Source of the DNA: Escherichia coli
GTDB lineage: Bacteria > Pseudomonadota > Gammaproteobacteria > Enterobacterales > Enterobacteriaceae
Strand: one strand, 5' to 3'
DNA: 27,210 nucleotides
Assembly (NCBI GenBank): GCA_005388305.1
Contig: GCA_005388305.1_4327.1
In this document: piece after piece, positions 5,775 through 16,926 of the stretch
How positions within the stretch are numbered: position 1 is the first letter of the stretch
How the letters are laid out: each line of letters begins with the position of its first letter
The notes under the pieces: model-generated
The model's input: only the letters and a program-made list of their open reading frames with translations
Database searches by the model: none
Told to the model about the DNA's origin: nothing
Program-made: the position numbers and the translations under genes

Positions 5775-7195
5775 TTCTTACCTCTTCTCTTCATATAATT
5801 AAGCAACTCTTCCTGTACCGATTTCTTCTCGTCCGTACGCGCGGCAACAACCTCGTCAAGAGTGTCTTTAGCGACTATGTGATAAAGGAACACCGGGCGC
5901 TCGTGGCCTGCCTGCTTCTGGCGTACTGGACCTATACGCTCGACGACCTGCAAATAGTGCTCAAGGTTCCAGCCTTGTGAAATGAATGCCAGATGATGCC
6001 CGCCGTCCTGTAAATTCAAACCATGCCCGGCTGACGCGGGATGCACGCACAAAATCTCGATTTCGCCTCGGTTCCACGCCTCCATCTGCTTATTACCCTT
6101 CGCGCCTTTAGAAAATGCCTGCGCCTGTGGGAACCGCTTAAGGATACGCTCAAGTTCGTGCTTAAACTGATAGGCCACAAGTAACGGTGCGCCCTGTAAC
6201 TCCTCGACAATGGACTCGAGCGCATCCAGTTTCGTATCGTGCACTTTCTCCCAGTCTTTCGTTGCCTCACCGTCCGGCCCTGACACATATACGGCGCCGG
6301 ATGCAATCTGCAAACACTTTGACGTCTTCGCTGCGGCGTTAGCCGCTTCTACTTCCCCGCTCTCCAGTTCCGCGAATAACTTCTCCTCCATATCGATGTA
6401 CGCCTGGCGTGCTTTCTTCGGCAGGTCTATTTCAACTGGTACGATAATCGGCGCTTCGCAACCGAACCACTCGGCAGCGTCAATCGTGAGACTAATGTCC
6501 TTCATCTTCTGATGAATCTCGGTATCCGCACCCGGGCGGGCGTGATACTCACGCGCCATCGCCGATTTGCCTTTCTGTACAGAGTTGAACCAGCGGTCGG
6601 TGAACGCAGTGTACGATGAGCCGAGGCGCTCGCCAGCGTCGATAAACCAGTTCTGGCCCCACAGGTCTTTGAGGCCGTTAGGCGACGGTGTGCCCGTCAG
6701 ATTGATGAAACGCTTAACTTTACCGAACGCCACTTTGCTGAGCGCCTTTGCCCGCTTGCTACCACCAGAACGGCTACGGAATGACTTCAGTTTCGTACTC
6801 TCATCTGCAACGATAACCGTAAAAGGCCAGTCGTCTTTGCCGTAGTAGTCAATCAGCCACTCGATAACTTCGTAGTTGGTACACACCACGTTAACATCTG
6901 ACTCCAGCGCCGCGATGCGGCGCTTTTCTGAACCAGTTGCATCGACGACGCTCAGACATGGGAATTGCCATTTCTCTTGTTCTGCGGGCCACGTACCCGA
7001 CGCAACGCGCAGCGGGGCGAGGATTAACACGCGGTCGTCATCATTAAGTTGACCGTTGCGGAACAGTCTGTTTAACGCCCACAGTACGCTGCCAGTCTTC
7101 CCGGCGCCCATGCTCGCCCATATGTTGCAGCGATGGTGCTGCAACATGAACGAAGTCATGAGCTTCTGGTATTCGCGCCTTTGAAACTTACTCAT
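5771..7195 (-). CDS. SNF2-family (superfamily 2) DNA helicase, 474 aa
   Basis: Walker A ASMGAGKTG, motif II VIVADEST, motif III LTGTP, C-terminal motif VI-like QVVERIGPVRQKQAG. Start overlaps the methyltransferase stop by 8 nt. Confidence 0.8.
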   Translation of the reverse strand: MSKFQRREYQKLMTSFMLQHHRCNIWASMGAGKTGSVLWALNRLFRNGQLNDDDRVLILAPLRVASGTWPAEQEKWQFPCLSVVDATGSEKRRIAALESDVNVVCTNYEVIEWLIDYYGKDDWPFTVIVADESTKLKSFRSRSGGSKRAKALSKVAFGKVKRFINLTGTPSPNGLKDLWGQNWFIDAGERLGSSYTAFTDRWFNSVQKGKSAMAREYHARPGADTEIHQKMKDISLTIDAAEWFGCEAPIIVPVEIDLPKKARQAYIDMEEKLFAELESGEVEAANAAAKTSKCLQIASGAVYVSGPDGEATKDWEKVHDTKLDALESIVEELQGAPLLVAYQFKHELERILKRFPQAQAFSKGAKGNKQMEAWNRGEIEILCVHPASAGHGLNLQDGGHHLAFISQGWNLEHYLQVVERIGPVRQKQAGHERPVFLYHIVAKDTLDEVVAARTDEKKSVQEELLNYMKRRGKK

Positions 7196-8111
7196 TTACG
7201 GCCCCCATAAACGCCTTTATAAATTCGGCGGCTACTTGCGGGACGATGGCATTGCCGTAACCGCGCAATCGTCCCACTCTTGCGGGTATCCCATTAGCCA
7301 GCGGGAATGTGCCGGGTTCAACTGGCCTGAATTTTCCATCCCGGCATCCGAGCCAGTCAGCATCTGACCAGTAGCCGTGATGCGGATTGGTTGATTCACC
7401 AAATATTGTGCGTGCGTCGCCAGATTGCAATTCGCATTCGGCCTGTTGAATCTCTTTTCCGCATATGCTTGCGGGTCTTTCGCTCGGCTGTTGTTGTCGT
7501 CTGCAACTGATGGCGCTGGCCATGCAGCTAAATGGCGGGCTTGTCCGGCAAGCGTCTGCAAACCGCGTTTCGTATCTGGTTGCGGATTGGTGTTCGCGGT
7601 CGGCGTGTACCATTCTTTTTGCACCAAAAAAGAGTCGCTCTCTTTTGTGCGGTGCGCCGACGCTACAAGCTGGGAGTACGGCAAACCCGACGGCGTAGTC
7701 TTCTCCTTCCAGGTGAGTTTGTAAATCGCACATCCACGATTTTGCAATTGCTGGCGCAACCTGCTCCCCAAAGAGGACTGGAGGTCGGCACTCGCTGATA
7801 AGGTCGAGGAACACAGGTGCGAGGTGTCTCGGGTCGAACTGTCCGAGTTGCTTTCCCGCCGCGCTAAACGGTTGGCAAGGCGGGCTTCCCGTCCAGAGAG
7901 GCGTATCCTCCGAAACTCCCGCAAGTCTGAGCGCGAGAGGCCAGCCGCCGATACCAGCGAAAAAATGACACTGGGTGAACCCGTCAAGGTCTTCTGGCTT
8001 AACTTCGGTAATGCTTCTTTCATCTACAACTCCAAAAGGTATGTGACCATGTTTTATTAATTCACGCAGCCACGCGGCTGCGCCTTTATCCCATTCGTTG
8101 TAATAGTTCAT
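7188..8111 (-). CDS. DNA (cytosine-5)-methyltransferase, 307 aa
   Basis: Motif I HFFAGIGG (FxGxGG), motif IV GSPPCQPFSAAGK (catalytic PCQ), motif VIII-like PHKRERLFF, motif X-like LRGYGNAIVPQVA. Confidence 0.8.
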   Translation of the reverse strand: MNYYNEWDKGAAAWLRELIKHGHIPFGVVDERSITEVKPEDLDGFTQCHFFAGIGGWPLALRLAGVSEDTPLWTGSPPCQPFSAAGKQLGQFDPRHLAPVFLDLISECRPPVLFGEQVAPAIAKSWMCDLQTHLEGEDYAVGFAVLPACSVGAPHKRERLFFGAKRMVHADREHQSATRYETRFADACRTSPPFSCMASAISCRRQQQPSERPASICGKEIQQAECELQSGDARTIFGESTNPHHGYWSDADWLGCRDGKFRPVEPGTFPLANGIPARVGRLRGYGNAIVPQVAAEFIKAFMGAVNE

Positions 8112-8299
8112 TTCGCCACCAGCACCAGCTCTTTACGCCCGAACGCCGTAACGTTACCCGTTACATCTTCGATAACCAGTTTACCGTTCGACTCGACGAA
8201 CACCGTATCAACGGCAACAGGTTGACGTGTCTTAACGTTGAAAATCATGTCACCCGGTACGATGTCACGTGCTGGTTTGCGGTCGTATTCGTGTTTCAT
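8108..8299 (-). CDS. hypothetical protein, 63 aa
   Basis: ORF overlapping the methyltransferase start by 4 nt (translational coupling); a sigma70-like promoter lies immediately upstream. No recognisable motif. Confidence 0.5.
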   Translation of the reverse strand: MKHEYDRKPARDIVPGDMIFNVKTRQPVAVDTVFVESNGKLVIEDVTGNVTAFGRKELVLVAK

Positions 8300-8329
8300 T
8301 TCTCAATTCCTTATATTGTTGGTGTATGA

Positions 8330-8617
8330 CTAACTATAATAGTTCGCTATTAGGTCGTCAACCTGTTTAAACGAACCAACGACAAAAACATTCGCACCAC
8401 GTTTACGCATACGCTCGTGCTCACGTAACTGGTGTGGGTCTGGCTTCGTGTTTTCGTCTTTCTTAACCTCGACGAACAAGACGATGCCGCCGGGTAGAAT
8501 TACCAGCAGGTCGGGAGCGCCGGAGCGCCCCTCATAGGAAAGTTTACGAACGAGGCCGCCGATAGCCTCGAATCGCTCTTTTGCGTATTTCTGCACGCGC
8601 CCCTCAGGCGTACTCAT
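8330..8617 (-). CDS. VRR-NUC domain nuclease, 95 aa
   Basis: Small PD-(D/E)xK-type protein with GAPDLLV…VEVKK acidic/Lys catalytic pattern typical of VRR-NUC; GGGAGGGG RBS upstream of the ATG at 8617. Confidence 0.7.
   Translation of the reverse strand: MSTPEGRVQKYAKERFEAIGGLVRKLSYEGRSGAPDLLVILPGGIVLFVEVKKDENTKPDPHQLREHERMRKRGANVFVVGSFKQVDDLIANYYS
8333..8361 (-). promoter_or_regulatory. sigma70-like promoter (TTGACG-17-TATAGT on the - strand) inside a copy of the conserved 30-bp element
   Basis: + strand reads AACTATAATAGTTCGCTATTAGGTCGTCAAC; reverse complement gives -35 TTGACG (8361-8356), 17-bp spacer, -10 TATAGT (8338-8333). Overlaps the 3' end of the VRR-NUC CDS and sits ~35 nt upstream of the 63-aa gene. 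Confidence 0.5.
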
Positions 8618-8698
8618 CTATACACCCCTCCCGTTTCGTATGCGCGATACCGCAGCGAGGGCAGATTCGACAGTCTTCTTCATATAACCAGTAAATTT

Positions 8699-8830
8699 TC
8701 ATTCCAGCACCCACAGATAAATTGCGATGAATATACCCAATACGGCAACCATCATGCCGTATTGGCCTTCGCGACAGTAGACACCGGCAGCAAATCCCGT
8801 CAGTACCGCGATAATCAGTTTACTTAGCAT
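8699..8830 (-). CDS. putative small hydrophobic membrane peptide, 43 aa (below ORF-track cutoff)
   Basis: ATG at 8830 overlaps the 3' end of the polymerase gene by 11 nt. Translation MLSKLIIAVLTGFAAGVYCREGQYGMMVAVLGIFIAIYLWVLE has two hydrophobic stretches. No independent support. Confidence 0.2.
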   Translation of the reverse strand: MLSKLIIAVLTGFAAGVYCREGQYGMMVAVLGIFIAIYLWVLE

Positions 8831-11099
8831 AACGGTGCACCTCTTCCCCGGCCCATGTTAGCGGGAATCCTTCAGCCCATTCAGGTAATGAGCATAACAG
8901 GTCACCCATCTCTTTAACCGTGTACTCCGGCGTGTCTGGCGTTTCGGCGACACATTCATCGTGTACGTGGAGTACAATTGGGTAGCCCGCTGCCTCGACC
9001 GTCAGGAGTCCGTTAACCAGTAAATCACGGCACAACGCCTGGATGATGTTTTCACACAATTTTCCGCCGTGTGTGTACAAAGTTGTCCACTGGCGGGTGG
9101 TCTGATTTTCGCCCTGGTATTTAATGCGAACGTTAGTTGTTACGCGCCCGTCCTCGTCAGTCTCTTTAGTGACGCTTAAACCTATACCAGGGTAGGACAT
9201 AATGCGCCCGGACGGCAACTCCACGCACAACCACCAACCCGGCACAAAGTTACCCTGTCTGTCTTTCTCTTTAGTACGCCATATGCGAATAGCTCTGTCG
9301 CCGTTAAGGCGGACTCTGGCCCCCGCCCAAAACTCTCGTCCCGGATTTCTGATTGCGGCAATTACCGAATCCTTAAGGTCGTTCCAGAATTTCACTGTTT
9401 CCGGATGGGCCTCCCGCCACATGCGCTTGATAGCATCGCAGGTGCGCCAGACTTCCTTTGGCAGCACATAGGAGGCCCGTTCGTCTTTTTTACCGGGTTT
9501 TGGGGGTCGCTTAGCCTCCTGAATCCGCGCCCATTCATAACCTCTGGCAGTAGCCGCCCATATATGATCAGGGAATGTCCCCCGCATTGTCTCCGTCATT
9601 TTAAANNNNNNNNNNNNNNNNNNNNNNNNNNNNNNNNNNNNNNNNNNNNNNNNNNNGCCGCCCTCATAGCCGAGGCCAAGCTCGCAACATTTCCCGACCT
9701 GTCGTAGGTCTTTACGGGTGGCTTTCAGTTCTATGGGGTCCATACCAAACATCTTACCAGCTGTGGCGCAATAAATATCAATCCCCGCGCGGAACGTATC
9801 AAGGGCGGACGTCTCCCCCGCCGTCCAGGCTAACCCACGCCCTTCCACGTTCGAGTAGTCGGCAACGAGCAACTTATTGCCTTTTTCCGGGATAATGCAA
9901 CTGCGGACAGTTGAGGCTGTTAGTTTAGATACGTCGAAACGGCGATGCGCCCGACCTTTTAACAGCAAATTGATGCCGAACGATAAGGGGTTAAGCCTGC
10001 GGTTCCAGTCTTCGTCGGACTCCCACGGCTGGCGTACAAGTTTCTTTTCCTCGTTAGTCGGGTCGTCATGGTAGTACCCGCGCGACAGGTTCTGCGGTTG
10101 GAACCCTTTACCCGCAAATCGTAAAGTGCGCTTTGCCCCACCGTACTGGATGCAACCGCGACGGCGTCCGTCTTTGGACCGTCCTAGCAGTAGCGGTTTG
10201 TATTTTGTTGACGCCGTGGAGGCCGCGCCGAGGCGCATCTCAATGATTGTGCGTGCATCGTCCGGTAAGTCGTCGTCCTCTAGCAAGCCTTCGAGCGTTG
10301 CTTTCTGCGCATTATAAATATTGTAGGCCGGTGCCAGTTCCCGGAGGATTGGCAGAAAATCTTTGCCAGTTAGTTTCCCTCCGAATTTCGCGCGGGCCTC
10401 GTTTTTTAGCTCTTGCTTGTGGCGTTCCACTGCCGCTACCGCCGCCTCAGCAAGAGCCGTGTCAACAAAGAAGCCTCGGTCGTTAATTAACTGGTCCAGT
10501 TCCAGTACACGGTCTTCGAACTCGGAGTTACCCCAACGCGGCAACTTATGGAACACTTCACGCATCGCGGTGATGTCGCTAACGGCGTACTTGATGAACA
10601 GCGCCCACTCATCCGGGTGCGTTTCAGCAGTGTAGCGGCGAATTTTGTAGTTCTTCGGCGTCGGTTTAGAGAAACGCTGAATAAGCGCTTTGCCTCGTTT
10701 GTCTTTCGCGTTGTCTGCAGACACGCCAAGCACTTCGCACAATGCGTCGAGTGAACCCGGCAGCGCGTGACGAAACGCCCAAATCATCGTATCAATGGTG
10801 TTGCTTACCGGAATATCAAAGCCCCAGCAGTGTTTCATGATGAGCCTGTCGAACATTGAGCCGTTGTGCCACACCATCTTGATGCGACTGTTTGGCTTAA
10901 CCAGGCGGCGCAGTGCGCGGTGCAAATCTCCCGGCATGTCGCTGCCGTCGGTGCAATCCCATACCTGTACAGGCTCGTCGTCAAAAGCGTATGTGCAGAT
11001 AAGCACTTCGGTAGTTGGATGTTCGGCGTAAGCGTAGGAGCCGACTTTCTTCAAATCGGCTTCGGAGAATGTTTCAAAGTCTAAGAACAGGTAACTCAT
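8820..11099 (-). CDS. family A DNA polymerase with 3'-5' exonuclease domain, 759 aa (interrupted by an assembly gap)
   Basis: Exo I LFLDFETFS, Exo II WHNGSMFDRL, Exo III YAVSDITAM, pol motif A LLVADYSNVEGRGLAW, motif B RKDLRQVGKCCELGLGYEGG, motif C VLHVHDECV. A run of 17 X residues in the translation corresponds to the N run. Confidence 0.9.
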   Translation of the reverse strand: MSYLFLDFETFSEADLKKVGSYAYAEHPTTEVLICTYAFDDEPVQVWDCTDGSDMPGDLHRALRRLVKPNSRIKMVWHNGSMFDRLIMKHCWGFDIPVSNTIDTMIWAFRHALPGSLDALCEVLGVSADNAKDKRGKALIQRFSKPTPKNYKIRRYTAETHPDEWALFIKYAVSDITAMREVFHKLPRWGNSEFEDRVLELDQLINDRGFFVDTALAEAAVAAVERHKQELKNEARAKFGGKLTGKDFLPILRELAPAYNIYNAQKATLEGLLEDDDLPDDARTIIEMRLGAASTASTKYKPLLLGRSKDGRRRGCIQYGGAKRTLRFAGKGFQPQNLSRGYYHDDPTNEEKKLVRQPWESDEDWNRRLNPLSFGINLLLKGRAHRRFDVSKLTASTVRSCIIPEKGNKLLVADYSNVEGRGLAWTAGETSALDTFRAGIDIYCATAGKMFGMDPIELKATRKDLRQVGKCCELGLGYEGGXXXXXXXXXXXXXXXXXFKMTETMRGTFPDHIWAATARGYEWARIQEAKRPPKPGKKDERASYVLPKEVWRTCDAIKRMWREAHPETVKFWNDLKDSVIAAIRNPGREFWAGARVRLNGDRAIRIWRTKEKDRQGNFVPGWWLCVELPSGRIMSYPGIGLSVTKETDEDGRVTTNVRIKYQGENQTTRQWTTLYTHGGKLCENIIQALCRDLLVNGLLTVEAAGYPIVLHVHDECVAETPDTPEYTVKEMGDLLCSLPEWAEGFPLTWAGEEVHRYAK
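9606..9656. other. assembly gap (51 consecutive N) inside the DNA polymerase gene
   Basis: Directly visible run of n characters; its length is a multiple of 3 so the frame is formally preserved, but the true length and sequence are unknown. Confidence 0.95.
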
Positions 11100-11119
11100 T
11101 ATTTTCGACCCTTAGTAAA

Positions 11120-11139
11120 AAGGCCCAATGAAGGGCCTT
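11120..11139 (-). terminator. intra-operon hairpin (putative partial terminator/attenuator) between the SSB-like gene and the polymerase
   Basis: AAGGCCC-AATGAA-GGGCCTT stem-loop in the 60-nt gap between the two genes; same stem sequence as the terminators at 5613 and 26948; only a short T-run follows on the - strand. Confidence 0.35.
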
Positions 11140-11158
11140 AGTTAAATTGATTCAGATA

Positions 11159-11785
11159 TTAGCGGCGACGACGCTCGCGGCGCGGTGCTTCATCTTCTTC
11201 GTCGTCTTCCAGGTCGTTGACGCTTGCAGCGACTTTAGAACCACCGAACGCTTTACCTTCGCCTACGTATTTAATCGCCAGCAGGTTAACCCCGAGAACT
11301 TTATATTTCTGGCTGAACCAGATTTCGACGCTTACGTTAGCGACGCAGCCGCTGTAAACCTGTTCACCTTCAATCTGTTCGCCGTCTACATTGAAGTCCT
11401 GTTCTACCTGAGTCTCGCCTTTTTTAGAGGTTACAATCAGTGGCTGTTTCTGTGCCTTCGCCTTGAAGTAGAAGCCTTCCGGGAAGTCTTCAAACGGATT
11501 GTCGCGCTCGGCAATGTCTTTAATCGCACATTTATCCATGTGCTTACCTTCGCCATAGTTGGACTTCATCCACTTCTCAGCGGCAGCTGCGCCCAACGCT
11601 TCTTCAACCACAGCGTAAACGGTGTCGTAGAGCGCGTCGATTTGTGCGTGGTCAGACGGCAGGATGATAGTCGCGCTGTACTGGCCTTTAGTGATTGAGC
11701 CATCATCGTTTTCACGGTCTTTTTCGCGTTCGAATACGTTAACCCATGCAGTGTTTACTTTACGCAGATTCAGTTTAATACCCAT
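11159..11785 (-). CDS. putative single-stranded DNA-binding protein (DUF2815-like), 208 aa
   Basis: Sits between the DUF2800 nuclease and the DNA polymerase, which is the conserved DUF2800-DUF2815-PolA gene order in phage replication modules; highly charged C-terminal tail (DLEDDEEDEAPRRERRRR); its own strong promoter immediately upstream. Confidence 0.45.
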   Translation of the reverse strand: MGIKLNLRKVNTAWVNVFEREKDRENDDGSITKGQYSATIILPSDHAQIDALYDTVYAVVEEALGAAAAEKWMKSNYGEGKHMDKCAIKDIAERDNPFEDFPEGFYFKAKAQKQPLIVTSKKGETQVEQDFNVDGEQIEGEQVYSGCVANVSVEIWFSQKYKVLGVNLLAIKYVGEGKAFGGSKVAASVNDLEDDEEDEAPRRERRRR

Positions 11786-11838
11786 CGTGATTTCTCGCTT
11801 TTCAGTTTACTCCGGGAACTGCCCGGCCAGTGATTAGA

Positions 11839-11867
11839 ACTATAATAGCTAACTATTCAGGTGTCAA
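11839..11867 (-). promoter_or_regulatory. sigma70-like promoter (TTGACA-17-TATAGT on the - strand) inside a copy of the conserved 30-bp element
   Basis: + strand GAACTATAATAGCTAACTATTCAGGTGTCAACAC; - strand -35 TTGACA (11867-11862), 17-bp spacer, -10 TATAGT (11844-11839); ~50 nt upstream of the SSB-like ATG. Confidence 0.55.
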
Positions 11868-11871
11868 CACT

Positions 11872-13122
11872 TTATTCCAAATCTTCTTCACTAACCTGAT
11901 TCCACTCAGGACGTTTGTCGTCTGCCGTTGCGACACATGGTGCGCCTGGCTTACGGGTAATAAACGGCTCAAGCGCCGCCATCTCATCCGCAGAAAGAAC
12001 TTTTGCTGCCTCCGTAGGGGACATCAATACCTCTTTTTTGAGAATGTCGCCGTGTGACACTTCAATCGCATCGGCATCTTTCCACGCACGATTACCCGGG
12101 CGGCCTTCTACCAGTTTGTACCCTGGCACTTTCTTACCGGAATGCAATGTGGCGGACATCGCTTTCTCAACCTTGTCGATGTGCTGGCGTAACAGCGGCA
12201 ACTTCTCATACTCAACTACGAGTTGCTCCGTCGTCAGTTCCAGCACAAAGTCGTCTTCAAGTTCTTCCGCCAGTACAGAATTAACCGTCTTTGTACGCGC
12301 GGCACACTGTTCAGAGAACCGGCACCACTGGCAACCATCGACCGACGGCCTGAAGTCAGACGCTTTCAGGTTCTTTTTACCACGGAAATACGCATCAAGA
12401 GCTAACAGTGCACGTTTCTGCGCAAACTTAGCGAACAGTTCCAGACCTTCAACCGAGATGTCCCACTCCGACGCACCGCCAGCATACGGCTGGAATATTA
12501 CCAGGCGAACAACAGTGATGTTATATCGTCTCTTGAGTCGGCGATAAACACCGAGAGCATAAAGCATAAGCTGCTTGTTTTCTTTCGCTTCGACGCGATG
12601 CCGTCCAGTTTTAAGGTCGCCAATAATGAGCATGTGCTCGTCGGTGTTCGCCAGTTCCTGAACGGCAACAATGTCGGCGGTTCCGAATGTCTCAACGCCT
12701 TCGTAGCCTGGATGCAATACCTCACTAAGATTGACACGCATCTCGAGTTTGGCGTAAGTCGCTACATCGATAACAGCTTTGCAGTGGTCGGTGTACTTGC
12801 GCACCTGCTCAATCATGTCAGCCGTAATCAGTACCGCGCCTTTCATCGGGCTGATTAGCGCCTTAATCTGGCCTTTACCCTCATCCAGCACGTAAGCACC
12901 TACTTCGCGCCCTAACGGCAACGCAGTGCCTTTGATGTACTGGTTTAAGTGCATCTCAGCTATGGTGTGCATAGCCGTTCCTAATACGGCGGCTTTACCT
13001 GACGTGTTAGGAATATCTTTTTCACAGGCCAGTGATGCACTGCACGCCAGCCACTTTTTAGCACCAGACGGCGACAGCAGGGCGTGTACGTCATTATTGC
13101 CACCACGTTCTTTTAGTTTCAT
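11872..13122 (-). CDS. PD-(D/E)xK exonuclease, DUF2800 / Cas4-RecB-like, probably with Fe-S cluster, ~416 aa
   Basis: N-terminal HALLSPSGAKKWLACSASLAC, nuclease core GTADIVAV…IIGDLKTG, C-terminal cysteine cluster CQWCRFSEQC (one N-terminal plus three C-terminal Cys, as in Cas4/AddB Fe-S nucleases). Start set at ATG 13122 (MKLKERGG…) because it forms an ATGA overlap with the upstream small ORF; the ORF-track start is 13143. Confidence 0.75.
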   Translation of the reverse strand: MKLKERGGNNDVHALLSPSGAKKWLACSASLACEKDIPNTSGKAAVLGTAMHTIAEMHLNQYIKGTALPLGREVGAYVLDEGKGQIKALISPMKGAVLITADMIEQVRKYTDHCKAVIDVATYAKLEMRVNLSEVLHPGYEGVETFGTADIVAVQELANTDEHMLIIGDLKTGRHRVEAKENKQLMLYALGVYRRLKRRYNITVVRLVIFQPYAGGASEWDISVEGLELFAKFAQKRALLALDAYFRGKKNLKASDFRPSVDGCQWCRFSEQCAARTKTVNSVLAEELEDDFVLELTTEQLVVEYEKLPLLRQHIDKVEKAMSATLHSGKKVPGYKLVEGRPGNRAWKDADAIEVSHGDILKKEVLMSPTEAAKVLSADEMAALEPFITRKPGAPCVATADDKRPEWNQVSEEDLE

Positions 13123-13277
13123 GCTCTTAACCCCACACCCCATTTAGCTTTACGCGTTTTACGTTTGCAGGCGCACGTGTCGCCACTACGGTTGAAGATG
13201 ACCAGCCAAGTTGAGTTACTCACTCGAAAAGGCTGGTGACGTCTAACAAATAGAAGTCGCGCTTTACGGTTCGTCAT
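13119..13277 (-). CDS. small basic protein, 52 aa (below ORF-track cutoff)
   Basis: ATG 13277-13275 overlaps the TGA of the 90-aa gene (ATGA), and its own TGA overlaps the ATG at 13122 of the nuclease (ATGA). Translation MTNRKARLLFVRRHQPFRVSNSTWLVIFNRSGDTCACKRKTRKAKWGVGLRA. Confidence 0.3.
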   Translation of the reverse strand: MTNRKARLLFVRRHQPFRVSNSTWLVIFNRSGDTCACKRKTRKAKWGVGLRA

Positions 13278-13546
13278 ACCCTGACCTCCCACTGGTCGAT
13301 TAAATGCCGCGTCTTATGGTCGCAATGCATAGCCCAGCTATACATCGACTCGAAGACATAAAAGTCACTTTTAACGAAAGTCGTGCGCTTAATCTGCGAC
13401 AGGTGACGGCCTATATCTTTCGGCTTCGGTATTTTTCCAAGGTAGGCCATCTCTTCCATCTGGTGTGCACCGGACGGCGCACGCAATAACCATAGCGCCT
13501 CTGTGTTATCCCGCCTGTCAACGGCGCGGTATAGTTGGTAAATCAT
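13274..13546 (-). CDS. hypothetical protein, 90 aa
   Basis: ORF with GAGGG RBS-like sequence upstream of ATG 13546; part of the leftward operon; no recognisable motif. Confidence 0.5.
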   Translation of the reverse strand: MIYQLYRAVDRRDNTEALWLLRAPSGAHQMEEMAYLGKIPKPKDIGRHLSQIKRTTFVKSDFYVFESMYSWAMHCDHKTRHLIDQWEVRV

Positions 13547-13566
13547 AATCCCGACCCTCAGTTAAA

Positions 13567-13582
13567 GCGGCCCGAAGGCCGC
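13567..13582 (-). other. GC-rich hairpin between the acidic-protein gene and the 90-aa gene
   Basis: GCGGCC-CGAA-GGCCGC stem-loop in the 43-nt intergenic gap; possible attenuator or RNA-stability element. Confidence 0.3.
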
Positions 13583-13589
13583 GGGATAG

Positions 13590-14111
13590 TTATTCTTCTT
13601 CGAAATACTTGTTCTTGATTGCTGTCAGGCGCTCCAGATACTCAGCCAGGTCTTCGTCTTTAATCGCTGCAATCTTCATCTTCTTACCGGTGAACTCTTC
13701 CAGCAGTTCGTCAGAATCGTCGCACGCGGCCTCGCTTGGGCCTTCGTTAATCGCATCGTCGATAGCCTGAATCTGGTCGCGCAGAGACTGGTAATCGACT
13801 TCTTCTTTCTCTTCTTCCGGCTCTGGCGTTGGTTCCTCTACTTTGTCCTTACGCGGCTTGCGCTTCGGCTTCTCTTCTTCTGCGGGTTTAGCGTCAACGG
13901 TGTCTTCACCTTCTACCGGGATTTCTTTCGCCTTCTCGACTTCTTCAAGTGCTTTAGCCAGCTCTTTTTTAACTGTTTCTACCCCCGTGACCGCGACGTC
14001 AACAGTCAATTCACCTACAGATTTGCTAGTCGGTTGTTTCACACTGTTTGCAGCAATCAGTTCGTGGGCGACTACGAAACGTTCCAGTAATACTAAGAAT
14101 TTCTCTAACAT
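13590..14111 (-). CDS. highly acidic hypothetical protein, 173 aa
   Basis: First gene downstream of the promoter at 14143-14171; GAGAGGAGA RBS; extremely D/E-rich with one Lys/Arg patch (KPKRKPRKDK). Confidence 0.6.
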   Translation of the reverse strand: MLEKFLVLLERFVVAHELIAANSVKQPTSKSVGELTVDVAVTGVETVKKELAKALEEVEKAKEIPVEGEDTVDAKPAEEEKPKRKPRKDKVEEPTPEPEEEKEEVDYQSLRDQIQAIDDAINEGPSEAACDDSDELLEEFTGKKMKIAAIKDEDLAEYLERLTAIKNKYFEEE

Positions 14112-14142
14112 TATTTATTCTCCTCTCGTTTGGTATGGGCTA

Positions 14143-14171
14143 ACTATAATAGTGAACTATTCACTTGTCAA
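14143..14171 (-). promoter_or_regulatory. sigma70-like promoter (TTGACA-17-TATAGT on the - strand) inside a copy of the conserved 30-bp element, in a divergent intergenic region
   Basis: + strand TAACTATAATAGTGAACTATTCACTTGTCAATGG; - strand -35 TTGACA (14171-14166), 17-bp spacer, -10 TATAGT (14148-14143). A second partial copy of the element (GGTACTATTCACATATCAA, 14197-14215) lies just before the rightward XRE gene. Confidence 0.55.
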
Positions 14172-14235
14172 TGGGCTTTTCTAAAATAATTAATATGGTA
14201 CTATTCACATATCAACTGACTAAGGAGTAATTGAC

Positions 14236-14451
14236 ATGCAACCATCTGAACTAGGCATCCGTGTAGAACAGCGCCGTAAAGAACTCAGTATTTCCCAGCG
14301 CCGTCTGGCTGTCCTGACCGGCGTTTCCCAGGGTGCAATTAACCAGCTTGCACTCGGGGTAACGCGGGACGTCCGCCCAGCAACGCTGTTTAAACTGGCG
14401 GAAGTGCTAGAGGTAGACGCCAAGTGGCTGGCGTTCGGTGAAGGGGCTTAA
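14236..14451 (+). CDS. XRE-family helix-turn-helix transcriptional regulator (Cro/CI-like), 71 aa
   Basis: HTH signature QRRLAVLTGVSQGAINQLALG; AAGGAG RBS before ATG 14236; followed immediately by a terminator; the only rightward gene inside the leftward operon. Confidence 0.8.
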   Translation: MQPSELGIRVEQRRKELSISQRRLAVLTGVSQGAINQLALGVTRDVRPATLFKLAEVLEVDAKWLAFGEGA

Positions 14452-14467
14452 CGCCCCTTTCTTTTTA
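14441..14467. terminator. rho-independent terminator after the XRE gene (between convergent genes)
   Basis: AAGGGGC-TTAAC-GCCCCTT hairpin containing the XRE stop codon, followed by TCTTTTTATT. Confidence 0.55.
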
Positions 14468-14662
14468 TTGCACCTTTATCGGGTATCTTTTGCGAAACTT
14501 ACCTAACCCGCAGTATACGCTGTAAGCCTCTGTGTAACTGTACACAACATGATACCCGCGCCCGTAAGGAACTACGTTAAGAACTTCCACTACTTCGCCT
14601 CTGTGGTTGGTGCATTTATTACCTTTAAGTTCGTCGCTTACTTCTTTAAATTTACCGCTCAT
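14465..14662 (-). CDS. hypothetical protein, 65 aa
   Basis: ATG at 14662 forms an ATGA overlap with the primase-helicase stop (14659-14661); no recognisable motif. Confidence 0.45.
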   Translation of the reverse strand: MSGKFKEVSDELKGNKCTNHRGEVVEVLNVVPYGRGYHVVYSYTEAYSVYCGLGKFRKRYPIKVQ

Positions 14663-16926
14663 TCCAAATCCTCCTCTGTCACTGTCAGCATCTCATTCGG
14701 TTCATATATTGTCTTCGGAATCTTGTTATCAGTTATCCGGGTGTTCAGCCTGTAACGGCAAGGGATTATCTGATTGTTTTCGTCAGTCCCCGGAACAAGA
14801 TACCCAGCCTCAACCATTTTCTTAATCTTCCCGCGTTCTATGGCTTCTTTGGAGTTAAACGCCTTTGCATTGGGGTCAGACTGTGCGAGCTTATTAGCGG
14901 CGGCGACTGTGATGCCTTCGTTGCCGTTGTAGGTTCCTTCCGCCAGTTCAAACGCCGCCAGTATCGTGGCTTCCGAACTGTTGACGGCGTTCTCCATGGT
15001 TCTACGTACGTTTTCTTTACCTTCCTTAGTCAGTCCTTCTTCCCGCTCTTTCTCCTCGTCAGTCTTGAACGGCTCGAAACCCCACGGCATTAACACAAGT
15101 GCCTTATGCGGCTCCGGCAGGTCGAGGTTTACGATTGTGCCGTATTCCTCCGTGCTACCGAGGAACTCAACCGCACGGTACTCTTTCGGCGGCGGCGCTT
15201 CACGGAACTGTACAGACTCCAGCACCATACCAACCGTCTTCTGTTGAGGCCCGTGCTTGAATTTCGAGTGGTATACATTTATCTGGCGGTCGGTAGCTCG
15301 TTCGATTGTCAGTTCCACGTCGACGCCAGCATACAGCGCCCCACTGCCACGGGCTTTCTTTCCGCCCTTCGGCGTATGGTGGACAACGCCTACCGCAGCT
15401 TTAGTCGCGTCACGTACTTCTTTCAGGATGGCGATAACCTTACCCATGCCGATTGCCGTTGATGAACTGTTCTCGTCGAACTTATCAATCGTCAGGGCTA
15501 GCGTCTGGTTGAGGGTGTCGAACGCAACCATGCCGATGGGTTCGTCACCCGCAGTTTCACGCATCAACTTAATCAGGCTTTTCAGTTTTCCGACTTCGCC
15601 CATGTCGATGACATGTACATAATCTTTACCTTCCTCGCCATATTTAGCCGCGAGCGCATCGATACGGGTGCGGGTAGCTGCGCCGCCTTCACCGTCGATA
15701 TAGAAATGGTGGCAACGCTGCGTATCTGCCCCCGCAAACCGGTATCCGGCGGCGCTCAGGTACGCCATCCCCAGCGTATAGAACGATTTGTACGTGCCGG
15801 ATTCCCCGACAATATCCCAGATACAATCTGACGGCATGTACCCTTCAACGACGAAATCCGCCTTTACCGGTTCCGGTAACTCGTCATCCTCTGAGTCCTC
15901 GTCATCTTCCAGGTCGTCGAGGCTGCATGAAACAGATTCACGTGCACCCCATCCGATGGCCTCTGCGACTTCACTGAACGGCAGCCCCGTCGCATCGCAC
16001 GCATACTTCCACACCTCTTTCGGTGACATGCCTTCGGTCGCCGTAATGTCGGTGTCGTGAATCATTGTTACGTTCGGCGCCTCATATCCCTCTCGCGGGA
16101 AGCACAGCAGGAAGTCATCCGGGCGCGGCGTCGGGTCGCTGTAGTTTTCTGCGTGTTCTGGCGTAGCTGGCATCTTAAGGCCTCGTGGCGTCATGATACC
16201 GCCATACTCGAACGCCAGTGCCTCGAACGCGTCGGTAAACGCGGTGCGCAGTTCTTCCGGTATCTGGTAATCCGATGCGCTGCTAACGTCAACGGCGGGG
16301 ATGCCTTCCAGTAACTCGTCCGGGTCAATCAGGTCGTTGCGGCGTGACCAGATAACGGTAGAGCCAACCGGAGGCAGGTACATCGGTTGCGAAAGAGTGA
16401 ACCCGCTGCGGTCAGCACCCATGCTTTTGAAGAAGTGTTCCAGCAATCCATGGCGAACACGGATGATGTCACCACCTTCGACCGGACGGGCCAGCGGCAT
16501 GACGACGCGAAAGCGCGGGGACTCGTCGGTATGTGATGCCGTGGTATAGAGGCACATGGCCTGGCGGCTACGCTTAACCAGGCGTACAGCTTCCTGATAC
16601 TCTTCCGGCGTTGCACTGTCGAAGTCCAGATACGCCAGCGACGATTTGCTTACAGACGCATCACAGCGATAGAAGAAACCCTTACGCGCTTGCTTAAAGT
16701 CGCCGGTTTTCGGGTCTTTTACAGTGCTGTGCGTCGAGTCGCACGCGGCGGTGATATAACCGGGCGCGGTCTTCGGGTTAATTCCGTCACGGACAGCATC
16801 AAGCGGCTGGATTAACTCTTTCAGGTCGTCCAGTGTTGCCGTGTGTGTGGTTCTGACGTTTATATCCTTTTTCTCTGCCCGCGCGTTGCGACGTGACCAC
16901 GAGTAGGATAAAATTACATCGGACAT
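14659..16926 (-). CDS. replicative primase-helicase (N-terminal primase-polymerase-like region plus C-terminal RecA/RepA-like AAA_25 ATPase), 755 aa
   Basis: Walker A GESGTYKS, Walker B MVAFDTL, VVHHTPKGG motif typical of RepA-like ATPases; N-terminal half has an acidic LAYLDFD motif reminiscent of prim-pol catalytic sites. Confidence 0.75.
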   Translation of the reverse strand: MSDVILSYSWSRRNARAEKKDINVRTTHTATLDDLKELIQPLDAVRDGINPKTAPGYITAACDSTHSTVKDPKTGDFKQARKGFFYRCDASVSKSSLAYLDFDSATPEEYQEAVRLVKRSRQAMCLYTTASHTDESPRFRVVMPLARPVEGGDIIRVRHGLLEHFFKSMGADRSGFTLSQPMYLPPVGSTVIWSRRNDLIDPDELLEGIPAVDVSSASDYQIPEELRTAFTDAFEALAFEYGGIMTPRGLKMPATPEHAENYSDPTPRPDDFLLCFPREGYEAPNVTMIHDTDITATEGMSPKEVWKYACDATGLPFSEVAEAIGWGARESVSCSLDDLEDDEDSEDDELPEPVKADFVVEGYMPSDCIWDIVGESGTYKSFYTLGMAYLSAAGYRFAGADTQRCHHFYIDGEGGAATRTRIDALAAKYGEEGKDYVHVIDMGEVGKLKSLIKLMRETAGDEPIGMVAFDTLNQTLALTIDKFDENSSSTAIGMGKVIAILKEVRDATKAAVGVVHHTPKGGKKARGSGALYAGVDVELTIERATDRQINVYHSKFKHGPQQKTVGMVLESVQFREAPPPKEYRAVEFLGSTEEYGTIVNLDLPEPHKALVLMPWGFEPFKTDEEKEREEGLTKEGKENVRRTMENAVNSSEATILAAFELAEGTYNGNEGITVAAANKLAQSDPNAKAFNSKEAIERGKIKKMVEAGYLVPGTDENNQIIPCRYRLNTRITDNKIPKTIYEPNEMLTVTEEDLE

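Follow-up and report, generated by a model that had tools for sequence, protein, structure and literature searches.

The window analysed here, a stretch of 27,210 bases, shares 93.5% identity with phage K1G over 87% of its positions 1–25000 (megablast), and the gene order of the two is alike. Phages of the K1G-like Kagunavirus type are siphophages of K1-capsulated E. coli. The window is a K1G-like Kagunavirus (Guernseyvirinae), of whose genome of about 43 kb it represents a 27-kb part. Its genes are arranged in the order helicase, C5 methylase, VRR-NUC, polymerase, Enc34-type ssDNA-binding protein, DUF2800/PD-(D/E)XK nuclease and helicase-primase; the methylase, the VRR-NUC, the ssDNA-binding protein and the nuclease were checked with Pfam.

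The C5 cytosine methylase ORF encodes 307 aa at 7188–8111 on the minus strand (PF00145, E 1.7e-16). Wholly within it, in another frame of the same strand, is an ORF of 263 aa (7232–8023) that has no Pfam match. In the RefSeq record of K1G both of the frames in this region are labelled 'DNA methyltransferase'. The 263-aa ORF may be a genuine overlapping gene or else a long alternative frame that is free of stops.

The polymerase gene (Table 1) belongs to family A, as the original prediction had proposed: PF00476 matches aa 395–478 of its ORF with 45.3 bits (E 7.5e-12), above the gathering threshold of 34.3. Motifs A (DYSxxE), B (RxxxKxxxxxxxYG) and C (HDE) are present in the expected order, and residues K470, L474 and Y478 correspond to K663, F667 and Y671 of Taq (Taq numbering of the full-length chain). 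The VHDE of the window is aligned with that of Taq solely in the second HMMER domain, which at -0.4 bits is below threshold; the motif C call therefore rests on the shared VHDE and its place after motifs A and B. In addition to the N-terminal exonuclease-like region listed in the table, the ORF has a weak match to PF13482 (19.6 bits, cut-off 22), and the GenBank record of the related phage fPoEco01 notes a match to the DnaQ_like_exo superfamily at aa 60–185.

Table 1. Features of the polymerase gene, with positions in the window
Feature	Position	Strand	Remarks
Family A DNA polymerase gene	8820..11099	-	759 codons as written, 17 of them X; 757 expected
Polymerase motif C, VHDE, aa 712-715	8955..8966	-	Shared VHDE and order
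Conserved anchor FPDHIW, aa 509-514	9558..9575	-	Paired with motif B for the segment measurement
N run, technical gap	9606..9656	.	On the coding (minus) side, polymerase codons 482-498
Polymerase motif B (O-helix), RQVGKCCELGLGYEGG, aa 466-481	9657..9704	-	Aligned with Taq RRAAKTINFGV(LYG)
Empty insert site, aa 471/472, GKC|CELG	9686..9687	-	30 nt from the N run; intact in the window
Polymerase motif A, DYSNVE, aa 414-419	9843..9860	-	Aligned with Taq DYSQIE
3'-5' exonuclease-like region, N-terminal, aa 59-186	10542..10925	-	Weak match to PF01612, 22.3 bits, cut-off 23.6

The coding sequence of the polymerase is interrupted by a run of 51 Ns. These are the sole non-ACGT bases in the whole window, and in this the earlier reading was right. 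The run occupies coding nucleotides 1444–1494, is aligned with the codons and gives rise to 17 X in the translation of the ORF. Base composition beside it is normal, with a GC content of 0.52–0.54 against 0.51 for the window as a whole. The run had been placed between the exonuclease and the polymerase domains. It actually falls inside the polymerase domain, where motif B (RQVGKCCELGLGYEGG) comes first and ends exactly at the Ns. Since the run starts at aa 482, 3 residues past the O-helix tyrosine Y478, the gap lies in the fingers, between motifs B and C and about 215 residues ahead of the latter.

Bacterial Pol I enzymes of the Taq and Klenow type, the structures of which are solved (1TAQ, 1KLN), can be aligned with the window polymerase from motif A through motif B (E ~1e-5). 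Apart from this stretch and motif C no similarity to them is detectable, and the phage enzyme is about 100 residues longer between motifs B and C. In Pol I structures the region after the O-helix is presumably that of the short helices O1 and O2 of the Klentaq nomenclature. A search of PDB sequences with the fragment that follows motif B returned only spurious protease matches (E>0.4). For the closest complete homologue AlphaFold2, given a shallow alignment of 24 sequences, reached a mean pLDDT of 37, which made the model unfit for a fold search. The model gives no more than a faint indication of two helices with a short loop between them over residues 480–503.

The polymerase is an ordinary member of its Kagunavirus/Guernseyvirinae family. 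The nearest class comprises proteins of 757 aa from E. coli and Salmonella phages (SGP007, GZMU_E2010, LSPA1), with identities of about 93% in nucleotides and 96–97% in protein. The Pol I alleles of vB_EcoS_GZMU_E2010 (XYO05418.1), of SGP007 (XUJ02763.1) and of the P0001/P0126 type are about 93% identical to that of the window in nucleotides and 97–99.3% identical in amino acids over the full length, and motifs A, B and C are shared with GZMU_E2010, SGP007 and P0126. The neighbouring genes of the GZMU_E2010/SGP007 type are likewise those of the window: a DUF2815/Enc34 ssDNA-binding protein and a DUF2800 nuclease upstream, and a 43-aa ORF and VRR-NUC downstream. The proteins of GZMU_E2010, SGP007 and P0126 differ from that of the window in having 757 aa, with a full stretch of 15 residues where the window has 17 X.

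Every allele in the databases differs from that of the window in about 7% of nucleotides, mostly at synonymous positions. The window polymerase is 99.3% identical in amino acids yet about 93% identical in nucleotides to P0126 and to the alleles L092–L094, so that in this comparison the differences are almost all synonymous. None of the collections searched held a closer nucleotide allele. There was no exact match to the flanks of the N run among viral contigs (both flanks) or among metagenome and genome contigs (right flank), nor any exact protein match for the polymerase or the neighbouring methylase.

How many residues does the N run stand for? DNA and protein alignments place 45 nt, or 15 codons, of the relatives opposite the 51 Ns, and both flanks are in frame and collinear with the relatives up to the N boundary, each being 92–95% identical to the same set of relatives. 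We measured the length of the segment as the number of residues between GLGY.GG and FPDHIW in about 80 loci and 134 proteins with 61–99% identity. It was 25 aa in all 75 of the automatically matched loci (IMG/VR and GenBank), and again in each of 134 proteins from a search of 5.8 billion proteins and from the cluster members of its matches. Five loci escaped the pattern. Read by eye, four of them show the same segment; frameshift errors, an anchor in the variant form FPGHI or a limit of the search script had kept them from being matched. The fifth, L061, stops inside the intein-like insert described below, and its segment is carried by L077, which is the opposite end of that contig. In the window the segment as written is 27 aa, made up of the 17 X and 10 further residues. 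The original prediction had allowed that the true length may differ from the number of Ns, and this is borne out by every homologue having 45 nt against the 51 Ns. The check that it had proposed, an alignment of the flanks with related polymerases, returns 15 missing residues against the 17 that the N count implies.

The closest alleles also point to what the missing residues are. The six closest in DNA all have 45 nt in the gap segment. P0126 (Logan runs ERR2029892, ERR15143234 and ERR2029819) is the nearest protein allele, with 99.3% amino acid identity outside the gap, and alleles of its class have no indel relative to the window outside the gap. All 15 sampled members of P0126's cluster, which numbers 279, encode VGAFMTMAKTYGLDL in the gap, and the peptide of SGP007 has Ala in the first position. 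Judged from these sequences, the hidden stretch would almost certainly be 45 nt encoding the 15 residues VGAFMTMAKTYGLDL. The exact bases are not something that the databases can supply, because the nearest DNA relatives are just about 93% identical.

Do the Ns then mask 51 real bases one for one, for example because a pipeline or a data handler masked low coverage or a contaminant, in an allele with two extra codons? The exact codon alignment and the divisibility of the run by three would fit any real in-frame sequence of 51 nt, and 51 differs from the customary fixed gap sizes of 10 or 100. None of the roughly 209 homologues at 61–99% identity deviates from 25 aa, however, and an insertion of two codons precisely at this point would be a coincidence when the alleles that are 99.3% identical are free of indels outside the gap. 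We regard such a masked allele as improbable.

The original prediction had also raised the possibility of a hidden intein or homing endonuclease, and some relatives of this polymerase do carry inserts. An in-frame, intein-like insert of 299 aa (CLHRH...TEDH...VAHN|C) is found within motif B, after the equivalent of window residue 471, in at least 11 loci of three host-gene lineages that are 66–84% identical to the window polymerase. Carriers include L003:1404-4502 (fPoEco01, MT711526), L059, L060, L064, L065, L068, L069, L072, L073 and L074, and Salmonella phage FSL SP-101 is among the phages with the insert. Alleles of this kind, those of vB_EcoS_fPoEco01 (QNO11827.1) and FSL SP-101, are 83% identical in amino acids to that of the window outside the insert. 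The alleles of fPoEco01 and FSL SP-101 have the insert inside motif B, and the window is without it; the segment after motif B is of 25 aa in these alleles as in the other relatives.

One distant relative, L067 (IMGVR_UViG_3300027985_000085), has another insert just before motif C, of about 300 aa and unrelated to the first (CISGD...TPDH...VIAHN|CT); the equivalent place in the window is at about aa 684–686, about nt 9042–9050. This would be a second intein-like site in the same polymerase family. Neither of the polymerase inserts was recognised by Pfam or NCBIfam, which revealed no splicing or endonuclease domain in the 299-aa insert and, for that of L067, only a faint NCBIfam hint to an intein-containing radical SAM model (E 0.058). 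With the profiles silent, we call the inserts intein-like on their Cys1, TxxH and HN|Cys motifs and the precise boundaries between presence and absence.

Inteins are already on record in Guernseyvirinae, where the genes concerned are those of the capsid or of head morphogenesis (PMC8425127, PMC11162368). According to one of these papers no inteins had previously been reported in coliphages (PMC11162368), a statement with which the intein-like insert of fPoEco01, an E. coli phage, contrasts. Homing-endonuclease ORFs of the HNH type (HNH_3, sometimes with AP2) are also seen in several relatives (L087:6682-7155, L091:10117-10614, L093:11336-11833 and L002:148-645), either directly upstream of the polymerase or in the interval from the VRR-NUC cluster to the helicase. 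The window has none at the matching positions around its polymerase. Mobile elements have a hotspot in the replication module.

Against this background the gap might conceal a larger insertion that broke the assembly; this could be a repeat, a homing endonuclease, whether free-standing or in frame, or an intein in a new position. The polymerase family is itself a hotspot, with inserts near aa 471 and aa 686 in relatives and HNH endonuclease ORFs adjoining the polymerase or the helicase, and gap lengths written as Ns can mislead. Yet no relative has an insert at the position of the gap, and at the known intein-like site 10 codons upstream the window is fully read and has no insert; on both counts the expectation of a hidden intein or endonuclease finds no support. 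A minimal intein, which has an N-terminal Cys or Ser, TxxH in block B and a C-terminal HN followed by Cys, Ser or Thr, runs to about 130 aa or more and cannot be accommodated by the 17 codons of the gap as written. The figure of 51, not far from the expected 45, has the look of a measured estimate and not of a placeholder. A larger insertion is accordingly the barest of possibilities; if true, it would be a third site for an intein or homing endonuclease in this polymerase family. That the Ns hide either two extra codons in a segment of invariant length or a larger mobile insertion that broke the assembly is, in our assessment, very improbable.

Nothing in the homologous sequence accounts for a break at this point. 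There was no second copy of a homologous 27-mer in the window, allowing for up to 3 mismatches, and neither the window nor L092 has meaningful direct or inverted repeats near the site. No unusual folding of the homologous stretch was found (DNA fold z-score 0.09). A hidden repeat, which had been suggested, is thus not borne out. The same is true of a hidden frameshift, the flanks being in the same frame and collinear with the relatives to the N boundary. A break without a repeat, a hairpin or an anomaly of composition to account for it also speaks against the reading of the run as an assembly gap.

The gene and its surroundings are mosaic in relation to the nearest relative of the backbone, the Logan contig L081 (DRR747907). 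Just upstream of the polymerase, over 11100–13200, the window and L081 are 99% identical, and identity is 95.3% over 10063–14718, which includes the first third of the polymerase. It is 73% at 9658–9959 and 84% at 7592–9590. This pattern of identity points to partial exchange of the polymerase gene by recombination between Kagunavirus lineages. The neighbouring nuclease of 423 aa was found in one Logan contig only, this same L081, which carries a different polymerase allele of 726 aa.

With a mosaic gene, and with metagenomes often holding mixtures of such strains, the Ns could be a chimeric join between two co-occurring Kagunavirus strains, and the polymerase as written a hybrid with no natural counterpart. 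The boundaries of the mosaic, however, lie away from the Ns, and over its whole length the gene has 99.3% amino acid identity to single natural alleles. L001, L002, L008 and L020 are the top relatives on both sides, at 93.4–94.8% identity on the left and 93.4–94.3% on the right. Since the flanks share their best relatives at similar identity, the Ns are most unlikely to represent a chimeric join, and this reading was rejected.

The N run is very probably a technical assembly gap in an ordinary phage polymerase, with an in-frame stretch of 45 nt as its real content; it is not a biological feature. No N runs are present in 96 related loci (639 kb), and the run is therefore a peculiarity of one assembly and not of the locus. 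The count of 51, near but not equal to the invariant 45, makes the Ns look like the product of a gap-size estimate. Two collinear pieces of one phage genome may have been joined by a scaffolding or gap-estimating step, which would have written the estimated distance of 51 as Ns and overshot by 6 nt. As 51 and 45 are both multiples of three, the frame would survive the overshoot. The run is like other scaffold gaps of estimated length in that its Ns join flanks collinear with intact homologues while the count is off. It differs from a typical scaffold gap in that 51 is not one of the conventional placeholders and in that the run is codon-aligned and in frame.

The original prediction had taken the run for scaffold filler because its length is a multiple of three. 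The run does behave as filler, with 51 Ns in place of 45 nt; the divisibility of the count by three is probably a coincidence. The run starts at codon position 1, its count is divisible by three and so are the homologous 45 nt, a three-fold coincidence that has a chance of about 1 in 27 if the contig ends and the estimate are random. This is mildly surprising and tells somewhat against the assembly-gap reading.

The significance of the N run is thus one of annotation quality only. The polymerase is to be annotated as an intact enzyme of 757 aa with a predictable stretch of 15 residues; labels such as pseudogene, split gene or intein host should not be applied to it.
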